A stretch of 64,000 nt of DNA from an uncultured Acidobacteriota bacterium (GTDB lineage Bacteria; Acidobacteriota; JAQAZP01). This document shows positions 26,581 to 59,146 of the stretch, one piece after another. The notes under the pieces were generated by a model that was given only the letters and a program-made list of their open reading frames with translations, was not told the origin of the DNA and made no database searches. The number at the start of each line of letters is the position of its first letter. Position 1 is the first letter of the stretch. A program made the position numbers and the translations under genes. The stretch is from positions 2,208,311 through 2,272,310 of the forward strand of contig CAWIIB010000009.1 in the NCBI GenBank assembly GCA_963836075.1, given 5' to 3'.

Positions 26581-26645
26581 TCATGGATAATCACTCAGCG
26601 GAACGCGGTATACTGCAGCGAACCAGCCAGGAGGGACGCCTGACC

Positions 26646-29600
26646 ATGAAGCTCGCATCCATCGGATCTGTTCTGCTCTTCCTGCTCACCGCTGTCCCGC
26701 AGTTGACGCACGCCACAAGGCTTTTCGACACGAGGATCGACCATTTCGTCGGTGCTTACCCGTTCGCCATCGACAGCAGCGATCTTGACGGTGACGGGCA
26801 CCTCGACCTGGTGGTGGCCCTCCACGGCTCGGACGGCATCTCCGTTCTTCTCGGCCTGGGGAACGGTGAATTCAGACCCGCCGTGCCATATGTGACCGAC
26901 GACAATCCCACGTCCGTGGCTGCCGCCGATTTCAACGGTGACGGTCACCCGGATGTGGCGGTGGCCAACCGGTATGGGCACAACATGTCCGTCCTCCTGG
27001 GCCAGGGGGACGGTATCCTGTCGCCGCCGGAGCACTACACCACCGGGTCCTCGCCCGAAGCTGTGATCGTCTCCGACCTTGACGGCGACACGGTGCCCGA
27101 CCTGGCCGTGGCCTGCCATTCGAGCCACGCGGTGTCAATCCTGCTCGGCAACGGGGACGGGAGCTTCCAGGCCGAGGTCCGCTACGACACCGGCTGGTAT
27201 CCCATCGATCTCGCCGTGGGGGACGTCAACGGTGACGGTGTGCCGGATCTGGCCACGGCCAGTTCGGCAGACCGCAGCGTGTCCATCCTCCCTGGCGCCG
27301 GCGATGGTTCCTTCGGGCCGCCCCAGGCCATCGAGATCGCCCAGGGCGTTTACGCCCTCGCCCTCGGTGATCTCGATGGGGACGACGTGCCCGACCTGGC
27401 CATCACAACGCACGTTTCGAGCACGAATTCGGGCGAGATCCAGATCTGGCTGAACACCGGTGGCGGCGCGTTCCAATGGAACCAGGAATGGGCGCACGGC
27501 GTCTTGCTCTACGACACCGTCATCGAGGACCTGGACGGCGACGGCTATCGGGATCTGGCGGTCACCGACATCGGATTCGCAAATGCTGAAGGCCGGGTCA
27601 CGGTGTACGCCGGCCGCGGTGACGGCACCGTGGAAGCGGCCTTAGGTCGATCATATTGGGCCGGCCTGTCCACCAATGCCGTCCACCCCGCCGATATCGA
27701 CGGCGACGGCCGTCTGGACCTGGCCGTATCGAACGCCACCAGCAGCGACATCTCCGTACTGCTGGGCAGAGCTGACGGCGCCTTCCACACCGCCCCGACG
27801 TACGGCGCGGGGTATGGCCCGAGGACCTCGGCCATTGCCGACCTCAACGGCGACAGCGTTCCCGACATCGCCGTTTCGTCATATGCCAACGGGCTCATCA
27901 AGATCCTGATCGGCGAGGGGGACGGCACCTTCCTGCCTGCCGGCCAGGTCACCGGGGCCGGCGGAAAACCGTCGGCCATCGTTGCCGACGACCTGAACGG
28001 CGACGGCATTTCCGACCTGGCCTTCACCACCCCGCTGGACGACAGCTGCTCAGTGACATTGGGCAATGGAGATGGAACGTTCCAGCCGGCGACGGACTTC
28101 GGAACCGGGGGATATCCCGACGCAATGGTGATCAGTGACCTGAACAACGACACCATCCCGGACCTGGCCGCAGCCAACATGGCCAGCGACTCGATCTCGG
28201 TGCTCCTCGGTGCGGGGGACGGCAGCTTTCTTCCGGCGCTCCACGCCGGCGCCGGTGCCGAACCGGCCGGCCTGGCCGCCGGGGACCTGGATGGCGACGG
28301 GGCCACCGACCTCGCGGTTACCAGTTCCACCGGGCATGACGTCTCCGTGCTGATCGGCAACGGTGATGGCACATTCCGGACGGCGGTGGGCTACGCGACC
28401 AGCCAGACCCCGGCCGGTGTGGCCATTGCCGATCTCAACGGCGACGGCCACCCGGACCTGGCGGTGGCCTGCCAGAACAGCAACAGGACATCGGTGCTCC
28501 TCGGCCACGGCGACGGTACCTTCCGGGAGGCGGTCGATCACTACACGCCCCACGGCCCGATATCGGTGACCGCCACCGACCTCGACCTCGACGGCTCGCT
28601 CGATCTGGTGCTGGCCTGCACAGTACGGTTCACCGTCGCCGTCCTCCGGGGACAGGGTGACGGCTCATTCATGGAAGCCGAACAGTACCGGCGTCGGGTT
28701 TCATCCGTACCATGTCTCCGCCGGCGACCTGGACCGGGACGGCCACCCGGACCTGGTGGCGGTGAACCGGTACAGCCATGATGTCTCGGTGTTGATCAAC
28801 GCCGGGAGCCCGGGGATGCTGGTGACCGGCCCTGGTCCGGGATTGGCGAACGAACCGCTGGTCAGGGTCTTCCCGCCGGTGGAGAACGCATTTCACGTTT
28901 CCGCGTTTCAGGCATATGGCGCCCCCCACTTTGGCGTGGGCGTGGCGGCCGGTGATCCAGACGGCGACGGCATCGACGTCATCATCACCGGCGCCGGCCC
29001 GGGGGCGGTTTTTGGCCCCCACATCCGCGCATTCATGGTCGACGGCACACCGGACCCCGGCATCAACTTCCTGGCCTACGGCACCAACAAGTTCGGCGTC
29101 AATGTGGCCGCCGGCGACCTGGATGGCGACGGGATCGACGAGATCGTCACCGGCGCCGGCCCGGGGGCTGTGTTCGGGCCCCACGTCCGGGGCTGGAACG
29201 TGGATGGCGGTACGGCCACGGCCATGCCCGGGGTCAGCTACTTCGCCTACGGCACGCTGAAACACGGGGTCAACGTGGCGGCCGGCGACCTGGACGGCGA
29301 CGGTTACGATGAGATCATCACCGGCGCCGGCCCGGGGGCGGTGTTCGGGCCCCATGTCCGGGGCTGGAACGTCGACGGCGGCACGGCCGCGGCCATGTCC
29401 GGGGTCAGTTTCCTGGCCTACGGCACCAACAGGTGGGGGGTCAACGTGGGTACCGGCGACATCGACGGGGACGGCATCGACGAGATCCTCACCGCGCCCG
29501 GTCCCTCGGCCCTCTTCGCCTCGCACATCCGGGGCTGGAATGCGGATGGCAGTTCCGCCACACCGCTGGCCGGCTGCAGCTTCCTCGCCTGGTCGGCAGC

Positions 29601-29817
29601 GCTGTCCCGCTACGGCGCCCGGGTGGCCTCGGGTGTCGACCTCGACAGCGACGGGTACCAAGAGATCCTGGTGGGCGCCGGCCCGGACCCCGCCACCGGC
29701 TCACCGGTGCGGGTCTTCGACTACCAGGATGGCCAGGTCAGCGAGGACTTCTCCCTCACCGCCTACCCCCAGGGCTGGAATCACGGGGTGAACGTGGCCG
29801 CGGGTCTGTTCCGGTAG
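26646..29817 (+). CDS. FG-GAP/VCBS repeat-containing secreted protein (~1057 aa) interrupted by a 1-nt frameshift near 28690-28700 (ORFs 26583..28781 and 28657..29817 are one gene)
   Basis: Signal peptide MKLASIGSVLLFLLTAVPQLTHA; >15 FG-GAP units (DLDGDGHLDLVVA...), C-terminal GAGPGAVFGPHVRGWNVDGG repeats; frames join as GQGDGSFMEAEQY | (G)VGFHPYHVSAGDLDRDGHPDLVAV. Confidence 0.8.
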
Positions 29818-29959: not shown

Positions 29960-31300
29960 GAACTTAGCGCTTCAGGAGTGTACCATCGATGAATGATGTA
30001 CAAACTCCTCAAAACCATCTATTCAGCTCTGAGAACCCAACGAACTTTGGCCCTGGAGAACCTGGCGCTCAGGCAACAACTTGCCATCCTCCGTCGAACG
30101 ATGAAACGCCCTCGATTGACGGAAACCGATCGACTGTTCTGGGTCTTCCTTTCCAGGATATGGCGAGACTGGGCCCAGGTGCTCGTTGTCGTCAAGCCTG
30201 AAACCGTCATTTCCTGGCATCGGGTGGGCTTCAAGCTCTTCTGGCGATTGAAAAGCCGGCGGAGGAACCGGGGCCGGCCTCGAGTTACACGTGAGATCAG
30301 GGATCTGATCAGAAGAATGTCCCGAGAAAACCCGACGTGGGGCGCTCCAAGAATCCATGGAGAACTGCTCAAACTGGGAATCGATGTGTCTCCGGCATCC
30401 GTGTCGAAATATATGGGTCGCCACCGGAAACCTCCATCCCAAACTTGGAGAACCTTCCTGCGCAACCATATGGGCGACATGGCCTCCATTGATTTCTTCA
30501 CCGTGCCCACGGCGACGTTCCGGATTCTCTACGCCTGTATCATTCTGACCCACTCTCGACGCCTCGTTGTACATTTCAACATCACCGATTCCCCTTCGGC
30601 AGCCTGGACTGGTCAGCAGATCATCGAGGCATTTCCCTGGGATTCAGCTCCGCGGTATCTGCTCCGCGATCGTGATGGGAAATACGGCCATGAATTTGTC
30701 AGCCGCGTCCGGTCAATGGGCATTGAAGAAGTGAAGACTGCCCCACGATCACCCTGGAAAAACTGTTTCGTCGAGAGGCTCGTTGGATCCATACGCCGAG
30801 ATTGCCTCGACCATGTCATCATCATCAACGAACAGCACCTCCGGCGAATCCTGAAAGAGTACTTCCTGTATTACCACCGGTCTCGAACGCATCTATCGCT
30901 CGATAAGGATTGTCCGGAGCCGCGAGCTGTAGAATCACCGAAGATGGGCAAAGTGATCGCACTGCCGCAGGTCGGTGGACTCCACCATCGCTACACCCGT
31001 CGGGCCGCCTGATCTGGTCGTGGACTTCAAAGCTTCTACATCAGATAGAACTGTAGGATCGTTTGTTCCGAATCGTTTTCTTTGGTCAGGCAACACTTCA
31101 TGAAGTGGCGATCCGTTGGTCTCGATGATTTCCCCCATCGATGATGCTTCAATTCTTCACTCTGAATGATCCCTCCGTCCATTCGTTCGACACCATCAGC
31201 GAGTCAGATGGATTTTGCAGGAGCCACAGGTATCCTGAATCATGTACACCGTACACAGCGAGGCGCGGATTCCCATATCCGCGCCTCATTGATTCTGCTC
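29960..31300 (+). mobile_element. IS481-like insertion sequence (approximate limits); lower-GC block between FG-GAP gene and flotillin gene
   Basis: Transposase gene, local GC drop, palindromic/CCATCGATGA repeats near both ends (29982-29998, 31133-31149), 11-bp stem hairpin 31259-31286. Confidence 0.35.
29993..31012 (+). CDS. DDE transposase/integrase (rve integrase core; IS481-like family)
   Basis: 339 aa; N-terminal HTH region, WGAPRIHGELLKLGIDVS, DFFTVPTATFRILYACIILTHSRRLVVHFNITDSPSAAWTGQQIIEAFP (DDE core). Confidence 0.8.
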   Translation: MMYKLLKTIYSALRTQRTLALENLALRQQLAILRRTMKRPRLTETDRLFWVFLSRIWRDWAQVLVVVKPETVISWHRVGFKLFWRLKSRRRNRGRPRVTREIRDLIRRMSRENPTWGAPRIHGELLKLGIDVSPASVSKYMGRHRKPPSQTWRTFLRNHMGDMASIDFFTVPTATFRILYACIILTHSRRLVVHFNITDSPSAAWTGQQIIEAFPWDSAPRYLLRDRDGKYGHEFVSRVRSMGIEEVKTAPRSPWKNCFVERLVGSIRRDCLDHVIIINEQHLRRILKEYFLYYHRSRTHLSLDKDCPEPRAVESPKMGKVIALPQVGGLHHRYTRRAA

Positions 31301-33021: not shown

Positions 33022-33254
33022 GGTCGATGTGGTCTAAGTTGTTGCAAGAACTAAATATATCGACATGGTGGTCATTCGCACACCGGGTCCCGCCGGTGGG
33101 GCAGCTGGTGTCGTTTCTTGCCGGTCGATAGTGGCGAAAGGAGCAACGCATGGCGCAGGAGAAGGACGGGTGCGTCAAGCCGGCAAGGGGCCCGATCATG
33201 CCGGCAGAATCGGAAGGCAGTCCAGGCGGCGGTGAAAAAAAGGAGGTGATCGCC

Positions 33255-33851
33255 ATGCAGGCACGAGTGGGACGGGAAGCGCCGGATTTCGAGGCCAACG
33301 CATACGTGGCCGGTGAGGGGTTCAAGACGGTTCGGCTCTCCGGTTTCAAGGGCAAGTGGATCGTGCTCTGCTTCTACCCCGGTGACTTCACCTTTGTCTG
33401 ACCCACCGAACTGGCGGCGGTCGCCGCCCGTTACGAGGACCTGAAAGGGCTCGGTGTCGTCGTGCTGTCCATGAGCACCGACAGCCGGTTCGTGCACCAG
33501 ATCTGGCAGCGCGAGGAACTGGCCAAAATGGTCGACGGTGGGGTGCCCTTCCCGATGCTTTCCGATGCCGGGGGGCTGATCGGCAAACTGTATGGGGTGT
33601 ACGATGAGGCCGCCGGAGTCGATATCCGCGGCCGGTTCATCATCGACCCCGATTTCGTCATCCGGGCGATGGAGGTGCTGACCCCCGAGGTGGGCCGCAA
33701 TCCCGATGAACTGACCCGGCAGGTCAAGGCGTTCCAGCATGTGGCATCCACCGGCGAGGTGACCCCCTCCGGCTGGCAGCCCGGCGATACCACCCTCACG
33801 CCGGGCCCCGACCTGGTGGGCAAGGTCTGGGAGGCCTGGAAGGTCAAGTAG
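33255..33851 (+). CDS. Selenocysteine-containing peroxiredoxin (AhpC/Prx1 family; Sec encoded by in-frame TGA 33399-33401 at the peroxidatic Cys position)
   Basis: ORFs 33150..33401 and 33462..33851 are in the same frame separated only by TGA; read-through gives [38 protein letters not shown] matching the FTFVCPTE active site; AAGGAGGTGA RBS 7 nt before ATG 33255; SECIS-like hairpin 11 nt downstream of TGA. Confidence 0.85.
33402..33435 (+). promoter_or_regulatory. Bacterial SECIS-like element: 11-nt spacer then hairpin GGCGGC-GGUC-GCCGCC
   Basis: Stem 33413-33418 / 33423-33428, apical loop GGTC 33419-33422, identical to the GGUC apical loop of E. coli fdhF SECIS; begins 11 nt after UGA. Confidence 0.6.
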
Positions 33852-33859
33852 GGCGAGGG

Positions 33860-34314
33860 CGCGATCAACAGGGCCCGACACGCCGAACCCCGACCAGGAG
33901 GATGCCGACGAGGACGGTGTTGGTGATGCCTGTGACACGGCCTCCGCCACCCTGGCCGCCACTCTGCGCTGTCTGCCCGATGCGGGGACCCTGCCCTTCA
34001 CCACCACCATGACGGTGGAACTGGCCAACCTGTATGGCGGGCAAACCCGCCGTCTGGCTGGACGTCTCGAACTGGACCTGGCCGGCGGGCAGCACTACGG
34101 CAGCTGGCGGGCCGGCTGGAGCAACATTGGCCCTTCAAACAGCTACCTCACCAGTTGGGGGCAATTCATCCCCGCCCTGGGATCGCTGGTGGGTGTCAAC
34201 ACCTTCACCCTGCTGGCCGAGGATGTCACACCGGCCCCGTACAACCAGCCGCCCTACCCGGCAGCCGGCGACCAGGCCAGCGACAACTGCACGGTGACCG
34301 GAATCCTTCCCTGA
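33860..34314 (+). pseudogene. Orphan copy of the conserved ~115-aa C-terminal domain (CTVTG-type CTD) without an N-terminal catalytic part or signal peptide; possibly a gene remnant (ATG-initiated ORF 34009..34314)
   Basis: Frame 1 reads ...DQEDADEDGVGDACDTASATLAATLRCLPDAGTLPFTTTMTVELANLYGGQTRRLAGRLELDLAGG...WRAGWSNIG...LGSLVGVNTFTLLAEDVTPAPYNQPPYPAAGDQASDNCTVTGILP, homologous to C-termini of four neighbouring genes; starts right after prx stop with no start codon. Confidence 0.45.
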
Positions 34315-34576
34315 AGTAGTTTATCGACGGCCCGGGGGACGCTCCCCGGGCCGTCCGTCCGGCATCCCGCCTGAAATCACTCCTTGACGAGTCTCATTCC
34401 TGAACATAAATTAGCTTCAAGACAATTGCACTCTCTTTCTCTATGACAACGATCAAGCGCAGCACTCCTGTCGCGAGAGTGCGTGAAACTACCACCAGGG
34501 CGAGTTGTTGTTGAAGGTCTGCTGCAGGTCGGCAGCTGATTTTCTTTCTTGTCCAATTAGCAAAGGGAGAAGAGCC

Positions 34577-34786
34577 ATGGCCGAGAGCGTGTACAAAGTC
34601 GTTGAAATCGTGGGTACCAGCACCGAGGGTTGGGAGAGAGCCGCGACTGCCGCCGTGGAGCGGGCAAGTCAGAGTCTGCGTGACCTTCGTGTCGCCGAGG
34701 TGACAGCGATGGACCTGGTGCTCAAGGACGGGCAGGTCGAGGCTTACCGGGCAAAGGTCAAGGTCTCCTTCAAATACGAGGGCTGA
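34577..34786 (+). CDS. Dodecin-family flavin-binding protein
   Basis: 69 aa MAESVYKVVEIVGTSTEGWERAATAAVERASQSLRDLRVAEVTAMDLVLKDGQVEAYRAKVKVSFKYEG; GGGAGAAG RBS. Confidence 0.8.
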   Translation: MAESVYKVVEIVGTSTEGWERAATAAVERASQSLRDLRVAEVTAMDLVLKDGQVEAYRAKVKVSFKYEG

Positions 34787-34829
34787 GCGGAGGCCGCCGC
34801 GGGGCGGCCCCCGAGTCGTCCCGACCCGG

Positions 34830-37055
34830 TCAGGGGGCGTGGGCCACCACCACGTTTGTCTTGGTGCACGTACTTCCCGAAGGCGGGTAGGGCGGCTGGT
34901 TGTATGGGGCCGGCGTTACATCCATGACGGACAACATACTGGTGTTGCTGCCGATGACGCTCCCCAAACTCGGGATGGTCACCGGGAACTGGGTGTAGTA
35001 GAAGGAACCCGGGGCTACGTTGGTGTAGCCCGCTCTCCAAGGGTTGAAGAGGGTGCCGTTGGCCAGGGTCAGGGAGATCTGCCCGGCGATCCGGCGGGTG
35101 AGGGCCGCGCCTCCGCTGAGGGTGTTGGTCATGGTGATCTGGTGCAGCACCTGGAAGGGCACTGTACCCGAGGAGGGCGTGCAGTTATAACTGCAGGTAA
35201 GGGTCGAGGTGCTCACGGCGCCGAACCCGGTGGCCCGGAGGCCGTAGTTGCCGTAAACCCCGCTGTCGGCGTAGAAGGTGCCTCCGATATAGGTCATGGT
35301 CCGTCCGTTCCAGGGTGAGCTGGTGTCCGCGCCGATGTTCGAACCGTTGTAAATGATGTAGAGCACCCAGAAGTCGCCCGAAGCGATCTGGATGTTCAGG
35401 CCGGAGACATCCTCGTAGTCCCAGCTATACCCGGTGGCCCCGGTGCTGGTGAGCACCGAGGTGAGAGGGGAGCCCGGCGAACCGCCGCTGTCGGACCAGA
35501 TCTGGTACTGACAGTTCCCGGTGTTCTGATGGATGTGAATCCCCTTCAGGTCGAAGGGGTAGGCGCCTGGCGTCATTCGCACCGCCCAGCCGTAACCCTC
35601 GGCCCAGTTCCAGCCGGTCTCGATGGACCCGTCGTCATAGACCAGGTATTCCCACAGGTCGCCCGGCTGGATGTCCATCTGCATGTCGCCGGCCGAAGCG
35701 GCGATATTGGTGATCGAAACCCCGGAGGCGCTGCCGTCATGCCGGTTGCTCGACGGCGTGGTGGAGGCGGTGAACTGGTCCACCGTGCTGTAGGGATAGA
35801 TGTCGCCGCTGTCACCGTAGGGCATGAAGGCTGAGCAGTCGAGGTCGAAGTTGCCGTCCGGCTGCTCCAGGGAGACCAGGTAGTGCGAGCTGGACGTGCA
35901 GTACGGCGCGTCCTCGCAGTCATTGCCGGTGGCGACTTCCTCGTCGATGTGCCAGACCAGCACACCGCCGCCCGGAAGGTTGCTGTCGAAACCGTAGCTG
36001 TTATCGCGGTGGGAGACCAGCAGGTACTCGGAACCCCGCCAGTTCATCCCGATCTTCAGCACCGTGGCGTTGTCCTCGATCCGCGGCAGCAGCCGGCCGA
36101 CAGCCGGTGAGGCCACCACCGTGGGGGTGAGCCAGCCCATCTGGATCTTGGACCAGGCGCAGAGGTGAGTGGGCTGTTCGGGATCGGCCACCGTGCCGCC
36201 CCATCCGCCGTAGCCCATCAGTCCCCAGACACCGATGCCTGAGCTGAGGGTGTCCATCGGCGGCCCGCAGACGAACCCGGTGTCGTTCAGGTCGGGCAGG
36301 CCTAGCATGTGGCCGAACTCGTGGCAGTACACGCCGATCTTGACGTGGGTCAGCGGCGAGGCGTCCTGCAGTTCCGGAACGCAGAGGTAGGAATCAATGG
36401 TCTTGCCGTCGTAGGACCGTGCCGTGCCGCCCATGGCGCTGATCGAGCTGAGGTGGCTGTGGATATCGTTGGTGTCCAGGCTGGTCTCGTGCCCCTCGCC
36501 GCAGTGCACCACGAAGATCGATTCGGCCACCCCGTCGCCGTCGTTGTCGTACTGGGAGAAATCAACCCCGGCGGTCTCGGCGGCATCCACCGCCTCCTCA
36601 ACCAGCGCGGCCGCGTTCCGGGGGTACGCGCCCCAACCCTGTTGCGCATTGCCGTAATAGGCCCGGGTGTTGGCCGCCGTATACCAGCCCACGCACAGAC
36701 CGGCGAGCTGCAGATTGCCGTACGACACCTCGTTGAAATAGTCGTTCATACTGTGTGGCGACCAGGGGCCGAACACCATGTTGTCAAAGGAGCCGGCCGT
36801 GTAGTTGCTGGTGACGTCCGAGAAACGGATACAGATCACCAGGATGTTGTGCGTTGCCCGCCAGCCCCCGTCGGGGATCCGGGCCGGCTTGTCGATCCAG
36901 GGCGGCTTGACCATCAGCTGCCGCCCATCCAGGGTCAGTCCGGGATTGGCCGGATCCAGAGCCCTGGGATCAACCGTGATCGCCTGGGCCAGAAAGCCGG
37001 GGAAGGAAAAGAGCGTGCACAACAAAAGCACCAACAGAAAATACTTGATATTCAT
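34830..37055 (-). CDS. Secreted M6-like (immune inhibitor A-type) zinc metallopeptidase with conserved C-terminal CTVTG-type domain
   Basis: Signal peptide MNIKYFLLVLLLCTLFSFPGFLAQA; HEFGHMLGLPDLNDTG (HExxH...zinc site); C-terminal ~115 aa CTD (...WRAGYTNVAPGSFYYTQF...DVTPAPYNQPPYPPSGSTCTKTNVVVAHAP). Confidence 0.8.
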   Translation of the reverse strand: MNIKYFLLVLLLCTLFSFPGFLAQAITVDPRALDPANPGLTLDGRQLMVKPPWIDKPARIPDGGWRATHNILVICIRFSDVTSNYTAGSFDNMVFGPWSPHSMNDYFNEVSYGNLQLAGLCVGWYTAANTRAYYGNAQQGWGAYPRNAAALVEEAVDAAETAGVDFSQYDNDGDGVAESIFVVHCGEGHETSLDTNDIHSHLSSISAMGGTARSYDGKTIDSYLCVPELQDASPLTHVKIGVYCHEFGHMLGLPDLNDTGFVCGPPMDTLSSGIGVWGLMGYGGWGGTVADPEQPTHLCAWSKIQMGWLTPTVVASPAVGRLLPRIEDNATVLKIGMNWRGSEYLLVSHRDNSYGFDSNLPGGGVLVWHIDEEVATGNDCEDAPYCTSSSHYLVSLEQPDGNFDLDCSAFMPYGDSGDIYPYSTVDQFTASTTPSSNRHDGSASGVSITNIAASAGDMQMDIQPGDLWEYLVYDDGSIETGWNWAEGYGWAVRMTPGAYPFDLKGIHIHQNTGNCQYQIWSDSGGSPGSPLTSVLTSTGATGYSWDYEDVSGLNIQIASGDFWVLYIIYNGSNIGADTSSPWNGRTMTYIGGTFYADSGVYGNYGLRATGFGAVSTSTLTCSYNCTPSSGTVPFQVLHQITMTNTLSGGAALTRRIAGQISLTLANGTLFNPWRAGYTNVAPGSFYYTQFPVTIPSLGSVIGSNTSMLSVMDVTPAPYNQPPYPPSGSTCTKTNVVVAHAP

Positions 37056-37224
37056 GGCCGGTCCTCCATTTATTACAGGGATATGATCTGCGTTCAGTTA
37101 GGTAGTGCGAGGAAGGGAAAGTAATCTCACAACAAAATATAGGTATTTTTCTTTTATGACGCCATAATTTTCTGATGTTTTTGGTTTTCGCTTCTGTGGG
37201 TCACAAAGTGACTGATACTGTTGA

Positions 37225-37310
37225 GGTTATCATTGCTTGAAGTCGTCACGCCTGAAACCGACATCTTCTGGAATCGAATGGGTTTCAAGCTCTTCTGGCG
37301 GATGCCCCCG
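37225..37310 (+). mobile_element. Short remnant of the IS481-like transposase gene (nucleotide similarity to 30196-30265)
   Basis: gtcgtcacgcctgaaaccgacatcttctggaatcgaatgggtttcaagctcttctggcggatg vs gtcgtcaagcctgaaaccgtcatttcctggcatcgggtgggcttcaagctcttctggcgattg; peptide VVTPETDIFWNRMGFKLFWR vs VVKPETVISWHRVGFKLFWR. Confidence 0.5.
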
Positions 37311-37430
37311 CAATTCCCACTCCGAATTGTCACTATTGTAATTTGGTTGGACCCATCAGCACGTCGGTTGGATATTCAGGAGCAACACCAGTGGGTTGAC
37401 ACAGAAGGAGGCTGTATTGGCATCTCTAGT

Positions 37431-37462
37431 TCGAGTCCGGCCCGGGGAGCCAGCATTCGGCA
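37431..37462 (+). other. tRNA 3'-end-like fragment (T-loop/T-stem/acceptor/CCA format) - possible att-site remnant
   Basis: TTCGAGT-CCGGC-CCGGGGA-G-CCA fits T-loop + T-stem 3' + acceptor 3' + discriminator + CCA but no matching 5' half upstream. Confidence 0.3.
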
Positions 37463-37643
37463 CATGAAATTCGCTGCAGGGCACACGAGGTATAATCTAA
37501 TATCGGTATATTCAGGAAATTCCCATGAATCGTGACCAGTTAGAGGTAAAACCATGACAATGATTCAGATGGTATCCGGCAACAACTGGTGGTAGAGGAA
37601 TCTAATAGGCGGGGGTGTTACCTGGAATGGAGGAGAACAGGAA

Positions 37644-39164
37644 ATGAAATATCAATCATATATCATCGTCCTTCTTGTTACCCTGATGTTTGCCATGGTG
37701 GGAAGTTACGCCAGAGCCCAATGGAATCCTCCCGAGCAGATTACCTACAACAACAAAGATGAACTGATCACGAACGGAAGTCTTGCCATCGATGGCAACG
37801 ATATCCTTCACATGGCCTGGGCACAGTACGATGGCATGGGAAGCAGCAAGCAGATCGTCTACATGGAGGGCTCCAGCGGAAACTGGGGGGATATCGTGGA
37901 GATTACCCCCAGCAGCCTTGACTGCACGACTCCGAACCTCGCCGTCCACTCGAGTGGAGACTCCCATCTCGTGTGGCTGCAGGACAACGGGAGCGCCGGC
38001 GAGCTTTTCTATGCCACCAATTCCTCGGGAACCTGGATCACGGAACGGATCACCAACAACACGACAACCGACATCGGTCCGGTTGTTGGTGTCGACGGCG
38101 CAAACAGCCCGCACATTGCCTGGGCTGGATACGATCCGGCCTCCGGCGAAGGCAAGATCTTCTATGGAAAGCGTTCCGGAGGGATCTGGAACAAACAGGT
38201 CCTCGAGAATTCTTCTCTCGGTGATTACTGGACCGGCGCCTATCCAAAGATCTCGGTCTCCCCTGCGGGGATTGTCCAGATCACCTACCGCGGGGGCGGA
38301 TACGGCTACTACCATATCCATCAGGCGACCAATGCGACCGGGGACTGGACGATTCAGATCCTCCATAGCACGAATCTCAATGATTTTTCCTCTTCCGTGC
38401 GCACCGATCCTTTCAACACCTGCTATCTCGCTATGAGCGGAGATTACGGATGGGGAATGCCCGGTGAGGTCTATTACCGAGAAAGCAGCGATCAGGGACT
38501 CACCTGGTCCGCGGCCGAACTGGCCTCAGGTTATCACGGAACATCGAATCCAGTGCTCGAAGTGGACGGGGAGGGTCACGCCCATATCGCCTGGGAGGAA
38601 GTCAGCGGCAGCATTTACACGGGAACGATCTTTTATTCCACCAATCGAGGCGGCGCCTGGACTACCGAACAGATGACGGGAAGCAGTGACTACTTCAGCC
38701 CCTCTCTCGTGATGGACGGTTCGGGGAGGGTTCACATGATCTACCTGCAGGAAATCCATCCCCAGCCCTCCGAGATATTCTACCTGACCAATGCGACATC
38801 GACCGTGACCGCGGACATCACCTGCACACCCTCATCGGGCACCTTGCCGTTCAGCACCTTCATGACGATGACGATGACCAATCTCCACACCGATCGGCGC
38901 AGGATCGCCGGCCGGCTCGGCATCACCCTGGCCAACGGCACCAGTTACGGCACCTGGCGGGCCGGGTACACCAACATTGGTAGCGGGGAAAGTTACGTCA
39001 CCTCCTGGGTCCAGAGCATCCCGGCCCTGGGCTCGCTGGTCGGGGACAACGTCTTCTCGCTCACCGCCGAGGATGTGACCCCGGCGCCGTACAACCAGCC
39101 GCCCCACCCGCCGGCGGGCGACACGGATACGGCCCAATGCACGGTGACCGGCGTGGCGCCGTAA
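37644..39164 (+). CDS. Secreted beta-propeller (BNR/sialidase-like repeat) protein with C-terminal CTVTG-type domain
   Basis: Signal peptide MKYQSYIIVLLVTLMFAMVGSYARA; recurring blade motif (...HIAW....G.IFY.TN.GG.W...); CTD 38815-39164 ending CTVTGVAP. Confidence 0.75.
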   Translation: MKYQSYIIVLLVTLMFAMVGSYARAQWNPPEQITYNNKDELITNGSLAIDGNDILHMAWAQYDGMGSSKQIVYMEGSSGNWGDIVEITPSSLDCTTPNLAVHSSGDSHLVWLQDNGSAGELFYATNSSGTWITERITNNTTTDIGPVVGVDGANSPHIAWAGYDPASGEGKIFYGKRSGGIWNKQVLENSSLGDYWTGAYPKISVSPAGIVQITYRGGGYGYYHIHQATNATGDWTIQILHSTNLNDFSSSVRTDPFNTCYLAMSGDYGWGMPGEVYYRESSDQGLTWSAAELASGYHGTSNPVLEVDGEGHAHIAWEEVSGSIYTGTIFYSTNRGGAWTTEQMTGSSDYFSPSLVMDGSGRVHMIYLQEIHPQPSEIFYLTNATSTVTADITCTPSSGTLPFSTFMTMTMTNLHTDRRRIAGRLGITLANGTSYGTWRAGYTNIGSGESYVTSWVQSIPALGSLVGDNVFSLTAEDVTPAPYNQPPHPPAGDTDTAQCTVTGVAP

Positions 39165-39435
39165 GGAATCTCTGACACGGGCGGGGGCTGTGCCCCCTCC
39201 CGCAATCCTCCTTGACTCTCACCGGCAGTGGGGTGCAACAAACACCTTCCGAAAAGTTCTACCTTCTGCTGGGCCCGGGGAGCCAGGCTTTTGTACAGCG
39301 AATCTGAAGGCCGATCTGGTTAACAGACAATATGACTCTTATTGTTGGACGTCTACCATATGGGTAAGCTTACGGTCTGTCTCCAATTTTTATCACTAAC
39401 TCTCTGTTCGCGATGCACTGGTTGGATGAAGCACA

Positions 39436-39451
39436 CCCCCCCCCAAAAAAA
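39436..39451 (+). repeat. Homopolymer tract C9-A7 in AT-rich intergenic region upstream of SBBP gene
   Basis: cccccccccaaaaaaa at 39436-39451; region 39290-39790 is ~40% GC versus ~65% flanks. Confidence 0.6.
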
Positions 39452-39801
39452 TAAGCATTTATCCGATGGGAGCCATACCTTTATAGTTATGGATTAATGT
39501 TGTACGAAGCAGGTCTAAAGTCTTACAGTTACTCTGCAAGCACGATCCCATCAAATTATTGTTTTACAGTTGCCTCAACATTATCGAGCCACAAGGCTCT
39601 ATATTTCACCGATCATGGCGTGGCTCCATCCCTGATGAGTCATTCCGTCAGCTTGTTCATGGAAATCTGAATCACACTCCACTCAGCGGTGGAAAACCCC
39701 AGGAGAGCGTGATAACAGCAGTGCTCAATTGAATCGAACAGTCGAAGTCAAATATGTTCAGACGCATTAGCAGGAATGAAGTACCAAAGGAGAAACGTAC
39801 G

Positions 39802-41499
39802 ATGACCAATAAGATAATATGGCAGGCCCTCGCTCTTGGACTCATGGCACTGTGGTTGGCGGTACCGGCGGCCCAGGCCCAGGTCGAGGAGGCCTGGGTG
39901 TCTCAATACATCGGCCCCCCTCCCCTCGAGGGCTGGCACCCTTCGGACTATGTAACAGATCTGGCGGTGCGTGACGGCTACGTCTATGTCACCGGATACG
40001 AATCTCGGTTTACCGCCTACTGGGCCACCGTGAAGTACGACTATACCGGGCAGGAGGTATGGGTCCAGAGAGTTGTGGACGGTCAGTCACAGACCGCCGA
40101 GGGGATCGCGGTTGACGCGGCCGGCAACGTTTATGTGACCGGCTACCAAAAACAAGTTGGTGCCGGCGGTGATGCGTTGACGGTGAAGTACAGCCCGGAG
40201 GGCGTGATCCTGTGGGAGAAGCTCTACGTGAGCCCTGGCGGTAACAACCGACCAAATGACATAGCGATCGATGCATCCGGGAACATCTACGTCTCCGGTG
40301 CCTCGTGGGTCACCGAGCAAGAGGAGTTTGACATGCTCCTGCTCAAGTACGACTCCGACGGCGAATTGCTATGGGATCGCACGTTCGACGATGGGGAAGA
40401 AAATTGGGACTCCGGTCTCGCATTAGCCATCGATCCGGATGGCAACACAATTGTGGCAGGTTTCACCGAACCCGAAGCCATGCTTGTGAAGTACAGCCCC
40501 ACCGGCGACCTGCTCTGGTATGACAAGCACGTGAGCTATGCGCCCTGGGACCAATGGGCACGAGTCATAACTGACTCGACGGGCAACATCTACGTTCTAG
40601 GGGAAATATCTCTCCCGGGGACGCCAAAGTACCTGTGGACGGCCAAGTACGATCCCGACGGCAACATTCTGTGGGAACAGCCCTACACCGGCACCGCGGA
40701 CGAATCCTGTTACGATGGCAACCTGGCCCTTATGCCCGACGGCGGCGTGGTGGTCACTGGCCAGAGTTGGGAGGTGTCCGGCATCAGCATCGTCACGATT
40801 CGTTATGATAAGGAAGGCACTGAGCTCTGGCGGCGGCTCGAAAACGCCGGGTACGCGCATACCAGCGGCGACGATGTGGCCGTCGACGCGGAAGGCCGTA
40901 TCTACGTCACGGGCTACGGCTATAACTATAGCTACTGGGAGGACAACATTACTCTGGGTTACTCACCCGACGGCGACCTGCTCTGGACACAGATCTACGC
41001 CAATCCCCAGCCCGATGGATCGGACTATCCGCAGGCGATCGCGGTGGATGAAGACGCGAATGTGTTCGTCGCGGCGCACTCCTGGAGTAGCGAAACCAGC
41101 AACGACTACACCACGATCATGTACCGGCAGGGTGCTCTGTCTGCCGAGTTGACCTGCCTTCCCTCATCCGGCACGCTCCCGTTCTCCACGGTAATGACCG
41201 CAACGCTGAGCAATCTATACACTGAACAGAGCCGCCGCATCTCCGGCCACATCGACGTCACTTTGGCCAGCGCTCAGCTATTCACCAATTGGCGGGCTGG
41301 ATTTACCAATATTGCTGGTGGCGCAAGTTACGTCACGACCTGGAATCAGACCATCCCGGCCTATGGGAGTGTGGTCGGTGAAAACGTCTTCCAGCTCCTG
41401 GCTCAGGACGTCACACCGCCACCATACAACCAACCGCCCTACCCACCGGCAGGGGACACGGCCACGGCCACCTGCACTGTGACGGGGATAGCACCCTGA
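39802..41499 (+). CDS. Secreted SBBP beta-propeller repeat protein with C-terminal CTVTG-type domain
   Basis: Signal peptide MTNKIIWQALALGLMALWLAVPAAQA; repeated G(N)xYVTG(Y) motifs typical of SBBP (PF06739-like) repeats; CTD 41150-41499 ending CTVTGIAP; AAGGAGA RBS. Confidence 0.8.
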   Translation: MTNKIIWQALALGLMALWLAVPAAQAQVEEAWVSQYIGPPPLEGWHPSDYVTDLAVRDGYVYVTGYESRFTAYWATVKYDYTGQEVWVQRVVDGQSQTAEGIAVDAAGNVYVTGYQKQVGAGGDALTVKYSPEGVILWEKLYVSPGGNNRPNDIAIDASGNIYVSGASWVTEQEEFDMLLLKYDSDGELLWDRTFDDGEENWDSGLALAIDPDGNTIVAGFTEPEAMLVKYSPTGDLLWYDKHVSYAPWDQWARVITDSTGNIYVLGEISLPGTPKYLWTAKYDPDGNILWEQPYTGTADESCYDGNLALMPDGGVVVTGQSWEVSGISIVTIRYDKEGTELWRRLENAGYAHTSGDDVAVDAEGRIYVTGYGYNYSYWEDNITLGYSPDGDLLWTQIYANPQPDGSDYPQAIAVDEDANVFVAAHSWSSETSNDYTTIMYRQGALSAELTCLPSSGTLPFSTVMTATLSNLYTEQSRRISGHIDVTLASAQLFTNWRAGFTNIAGGASYVTTWNQTIPAYGSVVGENVFQLLAQDVTPPPYNQPPYPPAGDTATATCTVTGIAP

Positions 41500-41530
41500 T
41501 CGACCAGACAGCACCGGCTCGGGACAATGT
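41150..41530 (+). repeat. CTD-coding repeat copy A (~93% nucleotide identity with 42643-43025, extends ~30 nt past the stop codon)
   Basis: Direct comparison of the two segments: long identical runs (ccctcatccggcacgctcccgttctccacggtaatgac..., ...tgaccagacagcaccggctcgggac). Confidence 0.8.
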
Positions 41531-41540
41531 GCGATGATTG

Positions 41541-41574
41541 CTCCATTCCTGCCCTTCAAGGGGCAGGAATGGAG
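41541..41574 (+). other. Perfect 14-bp inverted repeat hairpin (CTCCATTCCTGCCC-ttcaag-GGGCAGGAATGGAG) between SBBP and FGE genes
   Basis: Perfect palindrome produces mirrored peptide MLHSCP in ORFs on both strands (41538+, 41577-); no U-tract. Confidence 0.5.
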
Positions 41575-41625
41575 CAATGAAAAAGACCGCCGATATTCGG
41601 CTGAGATTTATTGAACTGGAGGGAT

Positions 41626-42994
41626 ATCGTGAGAGTTTTCTTATTCTGCGTTGTGTTGGTTTTGACACCCGCCGTGATGTGCCTTGCCCAAACTCCAGTC
41701 ATGCAGTTGGTTCCCGCCGGGGAGTACCGAGATGGGGGACCACCTGGGAACGGGATATTACCAGGAACTCCCTGTTCATGCGGTGTACATAGACGCGTTC
41801 TACATGGACACATTCGAGGTGGCCAACGAGGGGTACGGCACCTACTTGAACTCGGCCTACAGCCAGGGATTGATCGAGGTATCCGGGGGCGTGGTGTACA
41901 AGAACAACGACACCGAAGCGTACTGCTCAACAACCTCTGCACCTCCGGGCGTTCCTTTCTTTGGCGAGTCCAGCCGTATTTCCTGGAACGGAAGCACCTT
42001 TGCGGCCACCGCGGGCAAGAAGGAGCACCCCATGGTGCTGGTGAGCTGGTGGGGGGCTGCGGCGTACGCGAATTGGCGAAGCGAGCAGGAAGGACTGACG
42101 CCCTGTTACAACCTGGCAACCTGGGAGTGCGACTTCGGTGCGGACGGATACCGGCTGCCCACGGAAGCGGAGTGGGAGAAGGCGTCCCGGGGCGGTGAGC
42201 ACACACCTTATTACGATTATCCCTGGGGCAATAGCATTGATGGGTCAAAGGCGAACTACTATGATTCCGGTGATCCGTATGAGACGGGTGCCTTCCCTCA
42301 CACAACACCGCAGGGGTATTACGACGGCAACCAGATCCCTTCCGGCGTAGATATGGCCAACGGGTACGGCCTGTACGACATGTCGGGAAGCGTATGGGAG
42401 TGGTGCAATGATTGGTACGATGATCAATATTACCAGGCCTGCGTGGACTACGGGATATACGACAACCCGACAGGACCTCCGTATAGCCCTTATGGCTATC
42501 GTGTGTATCGCGGCGGTTCGTGGTTCAGCTATGGGATCAACCTGCGTTGCTCGGTCCGCGAAAGAAACTACCCCATCATTCTGCCCGAAATTGTCGGGTT
42601 CCGACTGGTCCGGGGTGCATCAAACAGTACCGTAGCTGCTGACCTGACCTGCGATCCCTCATCCGGCACGCTCCCGTTCTCCACGGTAATGACGACAACG
42701 CTGAGCAATCTATACACTGAACAGAGCCGCCGCATCTCCGGCCACATCGACGTCACTTTGGCCAACGACCAGTTCATCGCCAACTGGCGTGCCGGTTACA
42801 CCAACGTGGCCGCAGGCGGAAGTTACGTCACGACCTGGAATCAGACCATCCCGGCCTATGGGAGTGTGGTCGGTGAAAACGTCTTCCAGCTCCTGGCCCA
42901 GGACGTCACACCGCCACCATTCAACCAACCGCCCTACCCACCGGCGGGGGCCACGGCCACGGCCACCTGCACCGTGACGGGGATAGCACCCTGA
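41626..42994 (+). CDS. Secreted formylglycine-generating-enzyme (FGE/SUMF1) sulfatase-modifying-domain protein with C-terminal CTVTG-type domain; +1 frameshift near 41720-41730
   Basis: Signal peptide (M)RVFLFCVVLVLTPAVMCLAQT in frame of ORF 41611; FGE domain (YRLPTEAEWEKASRGG, GLYDMSGSVWEWCNDWY, YRVYRGGSWFS) in ORF 41684 frame; frames join as LVPAGEY | EMGDHLGTGYY (delete one C in TACC); CTD 42643-42994. Confidence 0.75.
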
Positions 42995-43025
42995 TTGACC
43001 AGACAGCACCGGCTCGGGACTCCCT
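42643..43025 (+). repeat. CTD-coding repeat copy B (paired with 41150-41530)
   Basis: see copy A. Confidence 0.8.
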
Positions 43026-43210
43026 GGGCCGGTGTTGCTGTGTACGGATAGCGCCAACGGCCGGCGGTGCATTGATTTCCTCACGTGCATGCGGCCCTCA
43101 TTCGTGTACCCATTGCCTGGGCTGGCTGCATACCATATAATATCAACAACTTAGGTGGCATCCCGCAACGATGAATGCATGAAACTCCCCTGTGAAAGGA
43201 TCGGTCACCC

Positions 43211-44182
43211 ATGAATGTCCCTGCAACGTTCCTGATTATCGCGCTGCTGGCTGGTGGTGCAACGACACCGGTCATCGAGCGGTGGCAGCCCCGGATCGTG
43301 ATCGCTGACCCCACCTTCATCGACGTGGACGGCATCTGCTGTTGCTCAGGGGAAGTCTTCGTGGCCGACACGAAGGCCAGGTCGGTCCTGGTGTTCAATG
43401 GGCAGGGCGACAAGCTCAGGGTGTACGGTGGCCAGTCAGAACCACAGCGTTTCGGCGAACCGATGGGTCTCGCGTGCCAGGGAGATCGGATCGTGCTGGT
43501 GGATCGGGAAAGAGTGCAGGTCAGCATCCTGACGCTTGATGGTGAGGTGGTCAAAAAGATCGCAGGAGCACCCGGGGCGCCGTTCCTGGAACCCAGTGGG
43601 GTGACCGTCGGCCCGGGGGGCAGGATCTTCGTAGTGGATTCGGGAAACCGTGTGTTCGTTTTCGACAGGAGTGGGAACTATCTCTTCCGCTTCGGCTCAC
43701 AGGGGTCGGAACCCGGGCAGTTGGACGGTGCCGAGTCCATCGCAGTGGACGCCCGGGGCCGCATCGTGGTGGCCGACGAAGGCAACTTCCGTTTGTCCGT
43801 TTTCGATGACAGCGGCCTGTTTCTCCGCACCATCAGTGAACGGGGGCCCGGTCCCGGCAAGTTCACCAAAGACGTCGAGGGGATCATCATTGACAAACGG
43901 GGTTACATTGTCTGTTTGGACGAAGCCGACGGCCTTGTGGAGGTCTTCGACCTGGAGGGTCACGTGATCGCCACCATCGGGAACGGGGCAGGCCAGGGGC
44001 CCGGCAAGCTCAACAGTCCGGACGGCATGGCCTATGATATGGAAACCGACCACCTCTGGATCGGAGACCAGGGGAACAAACGGGTTCTGTGCTTCGATCT
44101 TGGTCCCCTCCTGGGCCAGACGGAAGCGACCCCTCCAGGCAAGGCTGCCTTACCTTCCGTTGACGCCCCTCATTGTGAGTAA
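43211..44182 (+). CDS. NHL-repeat (six-bladed beta-propeller) secreted protein
   Basis: 323 aa; signal-like N-term MNVPATFLIIALLAGGA; repeated ...P.GVAVD..G.I.VAD..N.R..VFD..G... NHL units. Confidence 0.8.
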   Translation: MNVPATFLIIALLAGGATTPVIERWQPRIVIADPTFIDVDGICCCSGEVFVADTKARSVLVFNGQGDKLRVYGGQSEPQRFGEPMGLACQGDRIVLVDRERVQVSILTLDGEVVKKIAGAPGAPFLEPSGVTVGPGGRIFVVDSGNRVFVFDRSGNYLFRFGSQGSEPGQLDGAESIAVDARGRIVVADEGNFRLSVFDDSGLFLRTISERGPGPGKFTKDVEGIIIDKRGYIVCLDEADGLVEVFDLEGHVIATIGNGAGQGPGKLNSPDGMAYDMETDHLWIGDQGNKRVLCFDLGPLLGQTEATPPGKAALPSVDAPHCE

Positions 44183-44380
44183 GCGCGGGTTGTCCCTCCT
44201 GAATATTCCGTCCGCGTTCATTTCATTAGACTTACGCGACCGCCATCGAAATCAGGAAACTCAACGTCTTACCATACTGTAGTGTGTAACCCGATTTGAG
44301 TTTTTTGCCAATGCTCTCTGGTCGTCTGGATCGCCACTTCATCCCGGACATGTACGCTCTGAGCCATTAGCCCGGGGAGC

Positions 44381-44409
44381 CCAGCCGGACTCGAACCAGA
44401 GGTGTGACC
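44381..44409 (-). other. Second tRNA T-arm-like fragment (GGTTCGAGTCCGGC) in inverted orientation relative to 37431-37449
   Basis: Minus strand reads cctctgGTTCGAGTCCGGCTGGGCTCCCCGGGC; 17/19 identity with tctctaGTTCGAGTCCGGC at 37431; no complete cloverleaf. Confidence 0.3.
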
Positions 44410-49902: not shown

Positions 49903-50676
49903 GTGTGGAACGTGTATCAACAGCAGCGAATCCGGTTCGGTTTCGGGTCGGGGCTGACCCCGGCGGTGAAACTTCTGCTCATCGTCAACGGCGTGGTTTT
50001 CATCCTGCAGAATCTCGCCCCCGATTTCTTCTACCGCTGGTTCGCCCTCTGGCCCTACCTCGTCTGGAGCAAGCTGAACGTCTGGCAACTGGTCACCTAC
50101 ATGTTCCTGCACGGCGGGTTCATGCACATCCTGTTCAACATGTTCGCCCTCTGGATGTTCGGCTGCCAGATCGAGCGGCTTTTCGGCCGGAACCGGTTCA
50201 TCCGTTTCTACCTGCTAACCGGCGTGGCCGCCGGGCTGACGCATCTGATATTCTCCCCCAACTCCATGGTGCCGGTGATCGGCGCGTCGGGCGCCACCTA
50301 CGGCATCCTGCTGGCCTTCGGGCTCTACTTCCCCGACAACAAACTGCTGATCTTTCCCTTTGTCTTCACCCCGATCAAGGCCAAGTGGCTGGTGCTCATC
50401 GTCGGTGCCATCGCCTTTCTCGGTTCGATCTCGTCCTCGGGCGGCGGCGGTGTCGCCCACCTGGCCCACCTGGGCGGGATGGTTTTCGCCTACTTTTACA
50501 TCCGCCGGCTCCGCTTTCTCAACGACATCCACTACCTGATCCAGCGGATCCGGCAGCGGTCGCTGAGGAAGAAATACAAGATCTATGATGGTGGAAACGG
50601 AGGGGATCGGACGCCTGGAGGATTTCCCCGGCGGCCGCCGGACGGGGACGACGACAACGACTTCACCGTGCACTGA
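49903..50676 (+). CDS. Rhomboid-family intramembrane serine protease
   Basis: GASGATYGIL (catalytic Ser), AHLAHLGGMVFAY (catalytic His), 6 TM; GTG start (alternative GTG 49912). Confidence 0.85.
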   Translation: MWNVYQQQRIRFGFGSGLTPAVKLLLIVNGVVFILQNLAPDFFYRWFALWPYLVWSKLNVWQLVTYMFLHGGFMHILFNMFALWMFGCQIERLFGRNRFIRFYLLTGVAAGLTHLIFSPNSMVPVIGASGATYGILLAFGLYFPDNKLLIFPFVFTPIKAKWLVLIVGAIAFLGSISSSGGGGVAHLAHLGGMVFAYFYIRRLRFLNDIHYLIQRIRQRSLRKKYKIYDGGNGGDRTPGGFPRRPPDGDDDNDFTVH

Positions 50677-57100: not shown

Positions 57101-57255
57101 GTGACGATCTGCTGGTGGGCCGCGGGCCGGATCCCACCGCGGACAGTGAGGTGAAAGCGTTCTCCTACAACGGGTCGGCCGTGAGCCAGCTCTTTTCGCT
57201 GGACGCATTTCCGGGCCTGACCCACGGGGCCAACGTGGCGGCGGGAAAGAACTAA
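54107..57255 (+). CDS. FG-GAP/VCBS repeat-containing secreted protein (~1045 aa), paralog of 26646..29817; N-terminus may contain a frameshift (signal peptide in frame of ATG 54107, body in frame of TTG 54133)
   Basis: AAGGAGA RBS 8 nt before ATG 54107 giving MDIRGTSLLCFALLISASF signal; body ORF 54133..57255 with >15 FG-GAP units and C-terminal GAGPGAVFGPHVRGWN repeats. Confidence 0.8.
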
Positions 57256-58693: not shown

Positions 58694-58714
58694 CCCCGGG
58701 GCCTCTACTTCTGT

Positions 58715-59146
58715 TCAGACGTCGAAGAGCAGGGTGGCCTCCAGCAGGCCGCCGTTCTCCCGGATGCCTGACTGGTGGTAGGTCACCGCCTTGATCTCGC
58801 AACCTGGGCGGCCTGTCCGCCGCATGATGCACTCGGCCCGCAGGCGTGTCTGGCCCAGCTGCTGAAAAGTGATCGCGTGGGGGATCAGATGTCGGGTATC
58901 GGCATGGAAGTGCAGTTCCCCCAGCCAGCGCACCAGCAGGTCGTCCGGGTCCAGGCCGTCGAGATCGATGTCGATCCGGGCGGCAAGGGACTGCGCGCCA
59001 CCCGTGGTTCCCTCGTCGGGGAACAGGGTGTCGAACAGCGCCCGGGCGGCCTGCCGGAAGAGACTTTCCCGGTCGGGGGCCCAGAGGCGGATACGCAGGT
59101 CCGCCGGGTGGTCCACCATCTCATATCCGGCCTCCGGGATTTCCAT
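58715..59146 (-). CDS. Archease (RtcB activator)
   Basis: 143 aa; MEIPEAGYEMVDHPADLRIRLWAPDRESLFRQAARALF...KAVTYH...; immediately upstream of rtcB in same orientation. Confidence 0.8.
   Translation of the reverse strand: MEIPEAGYEMVDHPADLRIRLWAPDRESLFRQAARALFDTLFPDEGTTGGAQSLAARIDIDLDGLDPDDLLVRWLGELHFHADTRHLIPHAITFQQLGQTRLRAECIMRRTGRPGCEIKAVTYHQSGIRENGGLLEATLLFDV

Follow-up and report, generated by a model that had tools for sequence, protein, structure and literature searches.

In this work, we analyzed a stretch of 64,000 nucleotides (hereafter, the window) from the genome of an uncultured Acidobacteriota bacterium (GTDB lineage JAQAZP01; assembly GCA_963836075.1, contig CAWIIB010000009.1, positions 2,208,311 to 2,272,310), in which five consecutive loci end with the same C-terminal domain (CTD). 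C-terminal sorting domains define the secretome and the surface proteome of a bacterium. The module described here, of about 120 amino acids (aa), is an uncatalogued family, and we consider it probable (roughly 60%) that it represents a new class of C-terminal sorting/anchoring domain, functionally equivalent to the CTD of T9SS, the type IX secretion system, in one uncultivated diderm lineage. This reading is based on the terminal position of the domain, the diversity of its secreted cargo, the expansion of paralogues within a narrow clade, the exchange of the domain for a T9SS tag on orthologous cargo and the mutual exclusion of the two tags, as well as on its occurrence after a choice-of-anchor J domain, its fold class and size range (both resembling those of T9SS CTDs) and its high conservation.

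Five loci of the window end with a common domain

A sequence-only reading of the window had pointed to five loci with a homologous C-terminal region. A six-frame profile search of the 64-kb window, with a hidden Markov model (HMM) constructed from these copies, gave exactly five full-length matches (E 1e-59 to 1e-67; Table 1), each of them running to the final codon before the stop codon, and the next-best match had an E-value of 0.18. The CTD of the SBBP propeller protein shares 50-87% pairwise identity with the other window copies across 120 aa. The length of about 115 aa given previously has to be corrected to about 120 aa. The terminus CTVTG(I/V)AP holds as the consensus of the family (C-T-V-T-G-x-A-P, with Pro as the final residue in 96%) and fails for the copy on the M6 protease, which is divergent, ends with NVVVAHAP and has a shifted Cys pattern.

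The modules preceding the CTD, described in the same reading as unrelated to one another, were recognized for the M6 metalloprotease (PF05547 Peptidase_M6, E 3e-22; TIGR03296, 175 bits), the SBBP protein (PF06739, E 1e-23; the whole protein is identical to database protein P0124) and the FGE-sulfatase-domain protein, and the assignment of the BNR-like propeller is marginal (BNR_4, 27.5 bits at a cutoff of 27.3, together with a similarly weak PDIAV_lipo match). Signal peptides of the AXA type, which had been assigned to each of the proteins, are encoded at the N-termini of four of the five loci. One of the four, the FGE-sulfatase gene, is frameshifted near position 41727, with the signal peptide in the frame of 41611 and the catalytic body in the frame of 41684. 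The fifth locus, an orphan, has neither a start codon nor a signal peptide; it begins immediately past the stop codon of a peroxiredoxin gene and encodes the CTD preceded by a thrombospondin-type-3-like repeat (NPDQEDADEDGVGDACD). Its sequence is identical to that of database protein P0015. Judging by the full-length homologue P0137 (648 aa), this orphan is the 3' remnant of a gene combining DUF362, thrombospondin-type-3 and CTD modules.

Sequence, fold and cysteines of the domain

When 64 members of the family were compared with Pfam and NCBIfam, not a single match was obtained even at E ≤ 10, and this included PF18962, PF13860, TIGR04183 and TIGR04131 as well as the PEP-CTERM, MYXO-CTERM, GlyGly-CTERM and LPXTG models. 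Likewise, no Pfam or NCBIfam model matched the CTD region of the five window proteins, a profile search of the PDB sequences with the CTD retrieved nothing, and no description of this domain was found in literature searches. The novelty proposed from the sequence is thereby upheld, and the domain is not a peculiarity of one locus, since its copies occur at hundreds of others (see below).

Across the family, about 25 positions are at least 90% conserved, and there is a conserved loop (D91-D107), D-V-T-P-x-P-Y-N-Q-P-P-Y-P-P-x-G-D. Of 204 copies, 168 possess both of the cysteines C7 and C113 (odds ratio 31, p 1.5e-10); C3/C109 and C21/C68 were observed as alternative pairs. As these pairs covary, they suggest disulfide bonds, which had been anticipated for this domain, and hence an extracytoplasmic location. 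The expected lack of a transmembrane (TM) segment was likewise borne out, as the maximum of the Kyte-Doolittle hydropathy in a 19-residue window averages 1.02 over 204 CTDs and never exceeds 1.59. The AlphaFold (AF2) model of the CTD is a confident one (predicted local distance difference test score, pLDDT, of 97.3) and shows an eight-strand immunoglobulin (Ig)-like beta-sandwich; in a fold-class check this two-sheet sandwich was superposable on known members of the Ig-like, fibronectin type III (FnIII) and CARDB folds.

The domain takes the place of a T9SS tag on orthologous cargo

The two closest homologues of the window M6 protease (83% and 74% identity) carry the new CTD. The next tier of homologues (33-58% identity), the closest members of which are equal in length (about 720 aa), bears PF18962/PF13860 annotations. 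Among the best M6 homologues from outside the clade, 97 of 118 tails were matched by a T9SS-type tag profile, and three of these tails, scored on NCBIfam as a positive control, reached 30-31 bits with TIGR04183 (cutoff 23). Residues 1-618 of the window protease are colinear with residues 1-621 of P0274, a protein encoded by a contig of a sister lineage (56% identity), and the homology stops exactly at the tag boundary. According to these alignments, the new domain occupies the exact position of the T9SS type A tag on orthologous M6 cargo. Besides the M6 protease, two further proteins with T9SS/FlgD-type tags are encoded on this sister contig, one of them an SBBP-repeat protein, and the new CTD is absent from the contig. 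The M6 protease and a 504-aa protein pass the TIGR04183 cutoff, and the tag of the SBBP-repeat protein is matched only by the tag HMM constructed in this analysis and by FlgD-type models.

Furthermore, the two kinds of tag exclude each other. The DNA of the clade carrying the new domain contained 123 CTD matches in 1.03 Mb (the window and genome loci) and 125 in 0.79 Mb (metagenome loci), i.e., 248 matches in 1.82 Mb, and no convincing T9SS tag was found in these 1.82 Mb, the single marginal match being 65 aa long (E 7e-4). It should be stressed that the T9SS-tag profile does detect tags on cargo other than M6 proteases, as it did on the sister contig (E 1e-15 to 1e-17). Because M6 homologues swap tags precisely at the domain boundary and the two tags are mutually exclusive, we infer that one clade replaced the T9SS type A tag by the new domain across its secretome.

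Family size, distribution and cargo

When 1.84 billion representative proteins were searched with the profile, 494 clusters at 50% identity emerged (343 at E ≤ 1e-30). In 252 of the 259 database proteins retrieved, no more than three residues separate the end of the CTD match from the C-terminus, and the domain is terminal in 108 of 115 open reading frames (ORFs) of related genomes. In the JGI and NCBI metagenomes, 297 stretches encode the domain, and 117 of the 118 complete ones end at a stop codon. Overall, the extreme C-terminus is the site of about 97% of the copies. Two complete copies are present in eight proteins (in tandem in seven of them), a ninth protein has a partial second copy, and in three of the 259 retrieved proteins the domain lies far from the C-terminus. 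Tandem CTDs were observed on the beta-helix proteins P0121, P0123, P0125, P0127, P0132 and P0180; in such pairs the copy at the terminus represents a separate subtype of greater divergence (with motifs such as YRSGWNN...CW) and the internal copy is devoid of the terminal A-P. In P0126 and in a protein of locus L156 (1566-4685), another module separates the internal copy from the terminal one.

Screening of 185,579 species-representative genomes indicated 144 stretches encoding the domain. The best 80 of these 144 stretches originate from three assemblies only, i.e., JAQAZP01 (Acidobacteriota bacterium MAG_302_bin-08, a metagenome-assembled genome, MAG), CBESOE01 and a Ca. Sulfomarinibacteraceae MAG (a single contig). 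In the DNA examined, at least 67 distinct tagged ORFs belong to JAQAZP01, at least 36 to CBESOE01 and 3 to the third assembly, and further copies are borne by the window's own 3.52-Mb contig (P0003, P0035, P0039, P0046 and P0091). The NuoF protein encoded in the window has relatives at 90-95% identity, after which the identity drops to 70% or less (among named matches, 66% for Gemmatimonadota and Marinimicrobia and 64% for Thermoanaerobaculia); the lineage is therefore deep-branching.

The cargo modules comprise right-handed beta-helices, FG-GAP repeats, S8 subtilases, C25, C1, M28 and M6 peptidases, PQQ propellers, LamG, PA14 and arylsulfotransferase domains, and 100 of 115 full-length members have a signal-peptide-like N-terminus. 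Peptidases of the C25 (gingipain/PorU) family with the new CTD are unusually abundant, with several paralogues per genome (loci L035, L036, L048, L053, L063, L066, L067 and L150). The mean identity of CTD copies on different cargos is 51%, compared with 36% for T9SS tags on one cargo family, which suggests a constraint imposed by a common partner, and the narrow phylogenetic range could also explain it. Moreover, the CTD of P0171 stands immediately behind a choice-of-anchor J domain (NF038128, 39.4 bits at a cutoff of 30), and a region of this protein ahead of the CTD shows homology to M36 proteases that depend on myxosortase and rhombosortase. The choice-of-anchor J class is defined by standing before alternative sorting signals.

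Spread of the domain as a DNA cassette

The DNA encoding the CTDs of the SBBP and FGE-sulfatase proteins, i.e., of two adjacent but otherwise unrelated genes, is nearly the same in both (Table 1), and the identity extends from the domain boundary to about 26 nt beyond the stop codon. As it starts at the domain boundary and passes the stop codon, it indicates a cassette-like duplication, i.e., recent copying, or gene conversion between the two genes. The five-gene cluster as such is not conserved, and genes closely related to that of the M6 protease (84% nucleotide identity) lie amid others, both tagged and untagged.

Copying of a cassette between neighbouring unrelated genes, together with 26 nt of 3' flank, would also be expected of a generic structural or stabilizing Ig-like domain (a spacer or a folding aid) devoid of any part in sorting or anchoring, the C-terminal site of which merely reflects the mode of recombination; the ubiquity of the fold and the narrow phylogenetic range are in line with such a role. 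We consider this improbable, because the domain is strongly conserved over hundreds of cargos and many environments (the roughly 25 nearly invariant positions mentioned above), its free C-terminus is conserved, only signal-peptide proteins bear it, and it both stands in for a known sorting tag and follows a choice-of-anchor J domain.

Comparison with known sorting systems and search for the machinery

T9SS substrates have a Sec signal and, in addition, a CTD, the latter being both necessary and sufficient for export (a 2023 review, PMC10202324). The type A CTDs of this system are seven-strand Ig-like domains, in which conserved surface motifs and the last residues are required, and three CTD classes (A, B and C) unrelated in sequence are already accepted (PMC10202324), which makes a further class plausible. 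The new domain resembles type A (TIGR04183/PF18962 Por_Secre_tail; FlgD_ig-like) in being a C-terminal Ig-like sandwich at the extreme end of diverse Sec-exported, signal-peptide proteins, in having dozens of paralogues per genome and in the conservation of the extreme C-terminal residues. The two share their position on orthologous M6 cargo, and SBBP-repeat proteins bear either of them depending on the lineage. They differ in size (70-100 aa in type A and about 120 aa here), in the number of strands (seven and eight) and in the terminus, i.e., the Lys-rich motif E of type A and G-x-A-P of the new domain. Moreover, the new domain is set apart by a conserved (predicted) disulfide pair, a long invariant Pro-rich loop and occasional copies in tandem or at internal sites, and the two resemble each other neither in sequence nor at the profile level. 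Types B (TIGR04131/PF13585) and C (ChiA-like, cl41395) provide a precedent for one system reading several unrelated CTD families (PMC10202324), and the new domain differs from type B in giving no HMM match at E ≤ 10.

The tags of the PEP-CTERM/exosortase, LPXTG/sortase, GlyGly-CTERM/rhombosortase and MYXO-CTERM/myxosortase systems are, like the new domain, C-terminal, common to diverse secreted cargo and expanded within genomes, and they can follow a choice-of-anchor J domain. Unlike it, they are about 25-35 aa long, with a short motif, then a TM helix and then a basic tail, and this layout was not found in the CTD, a soluble fold of 120 aa that ends with A-P. Membership of the domain in any known CTD family is not supported.

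Several results weigh against a sorting tag equivalent to that of the T9SS. In an hhalign comparison, the alignment of 64 CTD sequences matched that of 97 T9SS tags with a probability of only 4.8% (local) or 0.1% (global), T9SS CTD HMMs matched none of the 64 CTD members, and, of the motifs A-E conserved in type A, the C-terminal Lys motif (motif E) is absent, as no conserved Lys occurs at the CTD terminus. The closest structural neighbours of the model are generic Ig/FnIII-type domains (RbmA, CARDB and macroglobulin), and not T9SS CTDs. About 3% of the proteins have tandem or internal copies, which is unusual for a pure secretion signal. The T9SS has been described as restricted to Bacteroidota (PMC10202324), and the lineage analyzed here is labelled Acidobacteriota. 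Finally, T9SS core genes (SprA/Sov, PorV, GldK/L/M/N and PorU) were not seen in the window and about 1.8 Mb of clade loci, a heuristic screen that covered a part of each genome. This DNA contained neither an ORF of SprA size nor a gldK-type operon, and none of the candidate outer-membrane proteins (OMPs) was PorV-like. The CTD-tagged C25 peptidases were considered as PorU and rejected, since they score 37-74 bits at a cutoff of 420.

As regards other results of this screen, the longest untagged ORFs of the related loci encode alpha-2-macroglobulin and S8/FG-GAP proteins, and the OMP-like candidates include a TonB-dependent receptor, porin O/P and OmpW; other candidates from the OMP search were a TatT-like TPR lipoprotein or had no match in the PDB. 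No operon combining FGE-sulfatase and gldK was found in the related loci, no PorP/SprF-like OMP was recognized among the OMP-like neighbours, and no clustering of the tagged genes with genes of this kind was observed.

The lack of T9SS genes in the sampled DNA, the RbmA-like fold, the tandem and internal copies and the pseudopilin genes of the window would all suit a module of non-covalent retention or adhesion, i.e., an Ig/FnIII-like domain that binds the surface or a matrix (lipopolysaccharide, exopolysaccharide or surface layer) or mediates protein-protein association. The enzymes would then be exported by another route, such as the type II secretion system, and kept at the surface, the domain itself not being a secretion signal; the invariant Pro/Tyr/Asn-rich loop could serve as its ligand site. 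Nevertheless, we regard this possibility as rather unlikely. A binding module would not normally end at the last residue in 97% of its proteins, with an invariant terminal Pro, and retention does not predict that a secretion tag is precisely replaced on orthologous cargo or that the two tags exclude each other. Furthermore, the structural matches show 10-15% identity within a ubiquitous fold; the FnIII-type domains of RbmA, CARDB and the macroglobulin-type Ig-like domains (8-16% identity) give no sequence-family match, occur at sites other than the C-terminus as well and do not serve as sorting tags. Neither retention nor a purely structural role accounts for the strictness of the terminal position, the invariance of the terminal Pro or the one-for-one replacement of a secretion tag. 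The candidate sorting or anchoring signal suggested by the sequence-only reading has gained support from the T9SS type A tag standing at the same position on the orthologous cargo of sister lineages.

Proposed mode of action

If the CTD is a sorting/anchoring domain, the cargo would first cross the inner membrane via Sec, with the N-terminal AXA signal peptides found in the sequences. It would then presumably fold and become oxidized in the periplasm, as the covarying Cys pairs imply. A translocation or attachment machine of the outer membrane might recognize the folded CTD by its invariant loop and the free G-x-A-P-COOH terminus, and this machine may be a co-evolved T9SS or another system. 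The cargo would subsequently be exported and either released or tethered to the cell surface, and the CTD might be removed in the process. The tag itself appears to move between genes as a DNA cassette, as seen for the SBBP/FGE-sulfatase pair.

Concerning the machine, we tentatively propose that the domain could be the recognition signal of an undescribed outer-membrane export or surface-attachment system, either a T9SS that works outside Bacteroidota in a strongly remodelled form or an entirely different machine. Within such a proposal, which is no more than possible, the CTD might constitute a fourth unrelated CTD class or belong to a machine that displaced the T9SS, each of the cargo genes having been re-tagged by cassette exchange.

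Genomic neighbourhood of the cluster

Envelope-related genes located in the window encode signal peptidase I, MurJ, two pseudopilins, an NHL protein, DegP, a rhomboid protease and TamB. The identities assigned to such neighbours by the sequence-only reading, in which the rhomboid gene was not mentioned, were correct, and their role as functional partners did not find support, as the neighbourhood is not conserved in close relatives. Signal peptidase I, MurJ, the pseudopilins and DegP were examined as partners and rejected for lack of synteny there. These are generic envelope genes, not demonstrable partners of the CTD. A rhombosortase-type role for the window rhomboid is unlikely, because the CTD has no TM helix. 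The presence of TamB and of a POTRA-domain reading frame indicates that the organism is diderm.

Table 1. Features of the 64-kb window mentioned in the text; positions are counted from the first nucleotide of the window.
Feature	Position	Strand	Remarks
Orphan 3' gene remnant	33871..34314	+	CTD 33952-34311, up to the stop codon; HMM E 6e-65
M6 (immune inhibitor A-like) metalloprotease, secreted, signal peptide	34830..37055	-	CTD 34833-35201; HMM E 1e-59
BNR-like/PDIAV-like beta-propeller protein, secreted, signal peptide	37644..39164	+	CTD 38805-39161; HMM E 6e-65
SBBP beta-propeller protein, secreted, signal peptide	39802..41499	+	CTD 41137-41496; HMM E 1e-67
FGE-sulfatase-domain protein, secreted	41611..42994	+	PF03781, E 3e-47; CTD 42632-42991; HMM E 2e-67
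CTD-encoding DNA cassette	41150..41525	+	about 90% identical to 42645-43020 (repeat search: 90% over 300 nt; pairwise DNA alignment)
IS481-type transposase relic	37233..37304	+	24 codons, between the M6 and propeller genes
IS91-family (Y2) transposase	24860-26248		intact, just upstream of the cluster
IS481-type integrase (transposase)	29993-31012		intact, just upstream of the cluster
FG-GAP/VCBS gene, first copy	26583-29817		without the new CTD
FG-GAP gene in overlapping ORFs	28657-28781		split
Peroxiredoxin, split	33150-33401 / 33462-33851		
NHL-repeat gene	43079-44381		90.5% DNA identity to L009 4475-5778
Rhomboid-family intramembrane protease	49903-50676		7 kb downstream of the cluster
DegP/HtrA	51678-53138		trypsin domain and two PDZ domains
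FG-GAP/VCBS gene, second copy	54133-57255		without the new CTD
RtcB-archease pair	57260-59146		
TamB, then POTRA-domain reading frame	59224-63999		POTRA frame runs off the window end

In the search for a conserved partner adjoining the tagged genes, only FG-GAP and sulfatase paralogues recurred. The lipoprotein-like sulfatase-domain family found near tagged genes comprises 14 genes in 11 loci (e.g., L044 13533-16013). The FG-GAP/VCBS proteins are a second paralogous family (47 untagged genes across 31 loci) and have a common C-terminal module of about 330 aa with the terminus ...NVAAGRF or similar; the two window copies show 71-77% DNA identity to copies in many related loci (L006, L008, L033, L042, L049, L051 and others). 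The sole local synteny observed concerns the NHL-repeat gene, the counterpart of which in the MAG JAQAZP01 likewise lies a few kb from a CTD gene.

The relic of an IS481-type transposase inside the cluster is 67% identical to residues 63-86 of the transposase encoded at 29993-31012 (pairwise E 9e-9). This relic and the intact transposase genes upstream indicate that the locus has been rearranged, and the mobile-element content around the cluster fits the truncation of the orphan CTD gene. The split or frameshifted genes of the window (the FGE-sulfatase gene, an FG-GAP gene and the peroxiredoxin gene; Table 1) could be the result of indel errors in a long-read assembly or genuine pseudogenes. 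Scans for promoters and terminators gave counts no higher than those expected by chance.

Significance of the finding

As long as the domain is uncatalogued, hundreds of proteases, propellers and beta-helix proteins of this clade are annotated as hypothetical and without localization, and a new Pfam/NCBIfam family is justified. The profile HMM, combined with phylogenetic profiling, offers a direct handle on the partner machinery. On orthologous cargo, the T9SS type A tag and the new domain are cleanly exchanged for one another, which constitutes a natural experiment on the co-evolution of a signal and its machine, and the outcome for the machinery would be informative either way, whether a T9SS reading a fourth class of signal or some other system were revealed.

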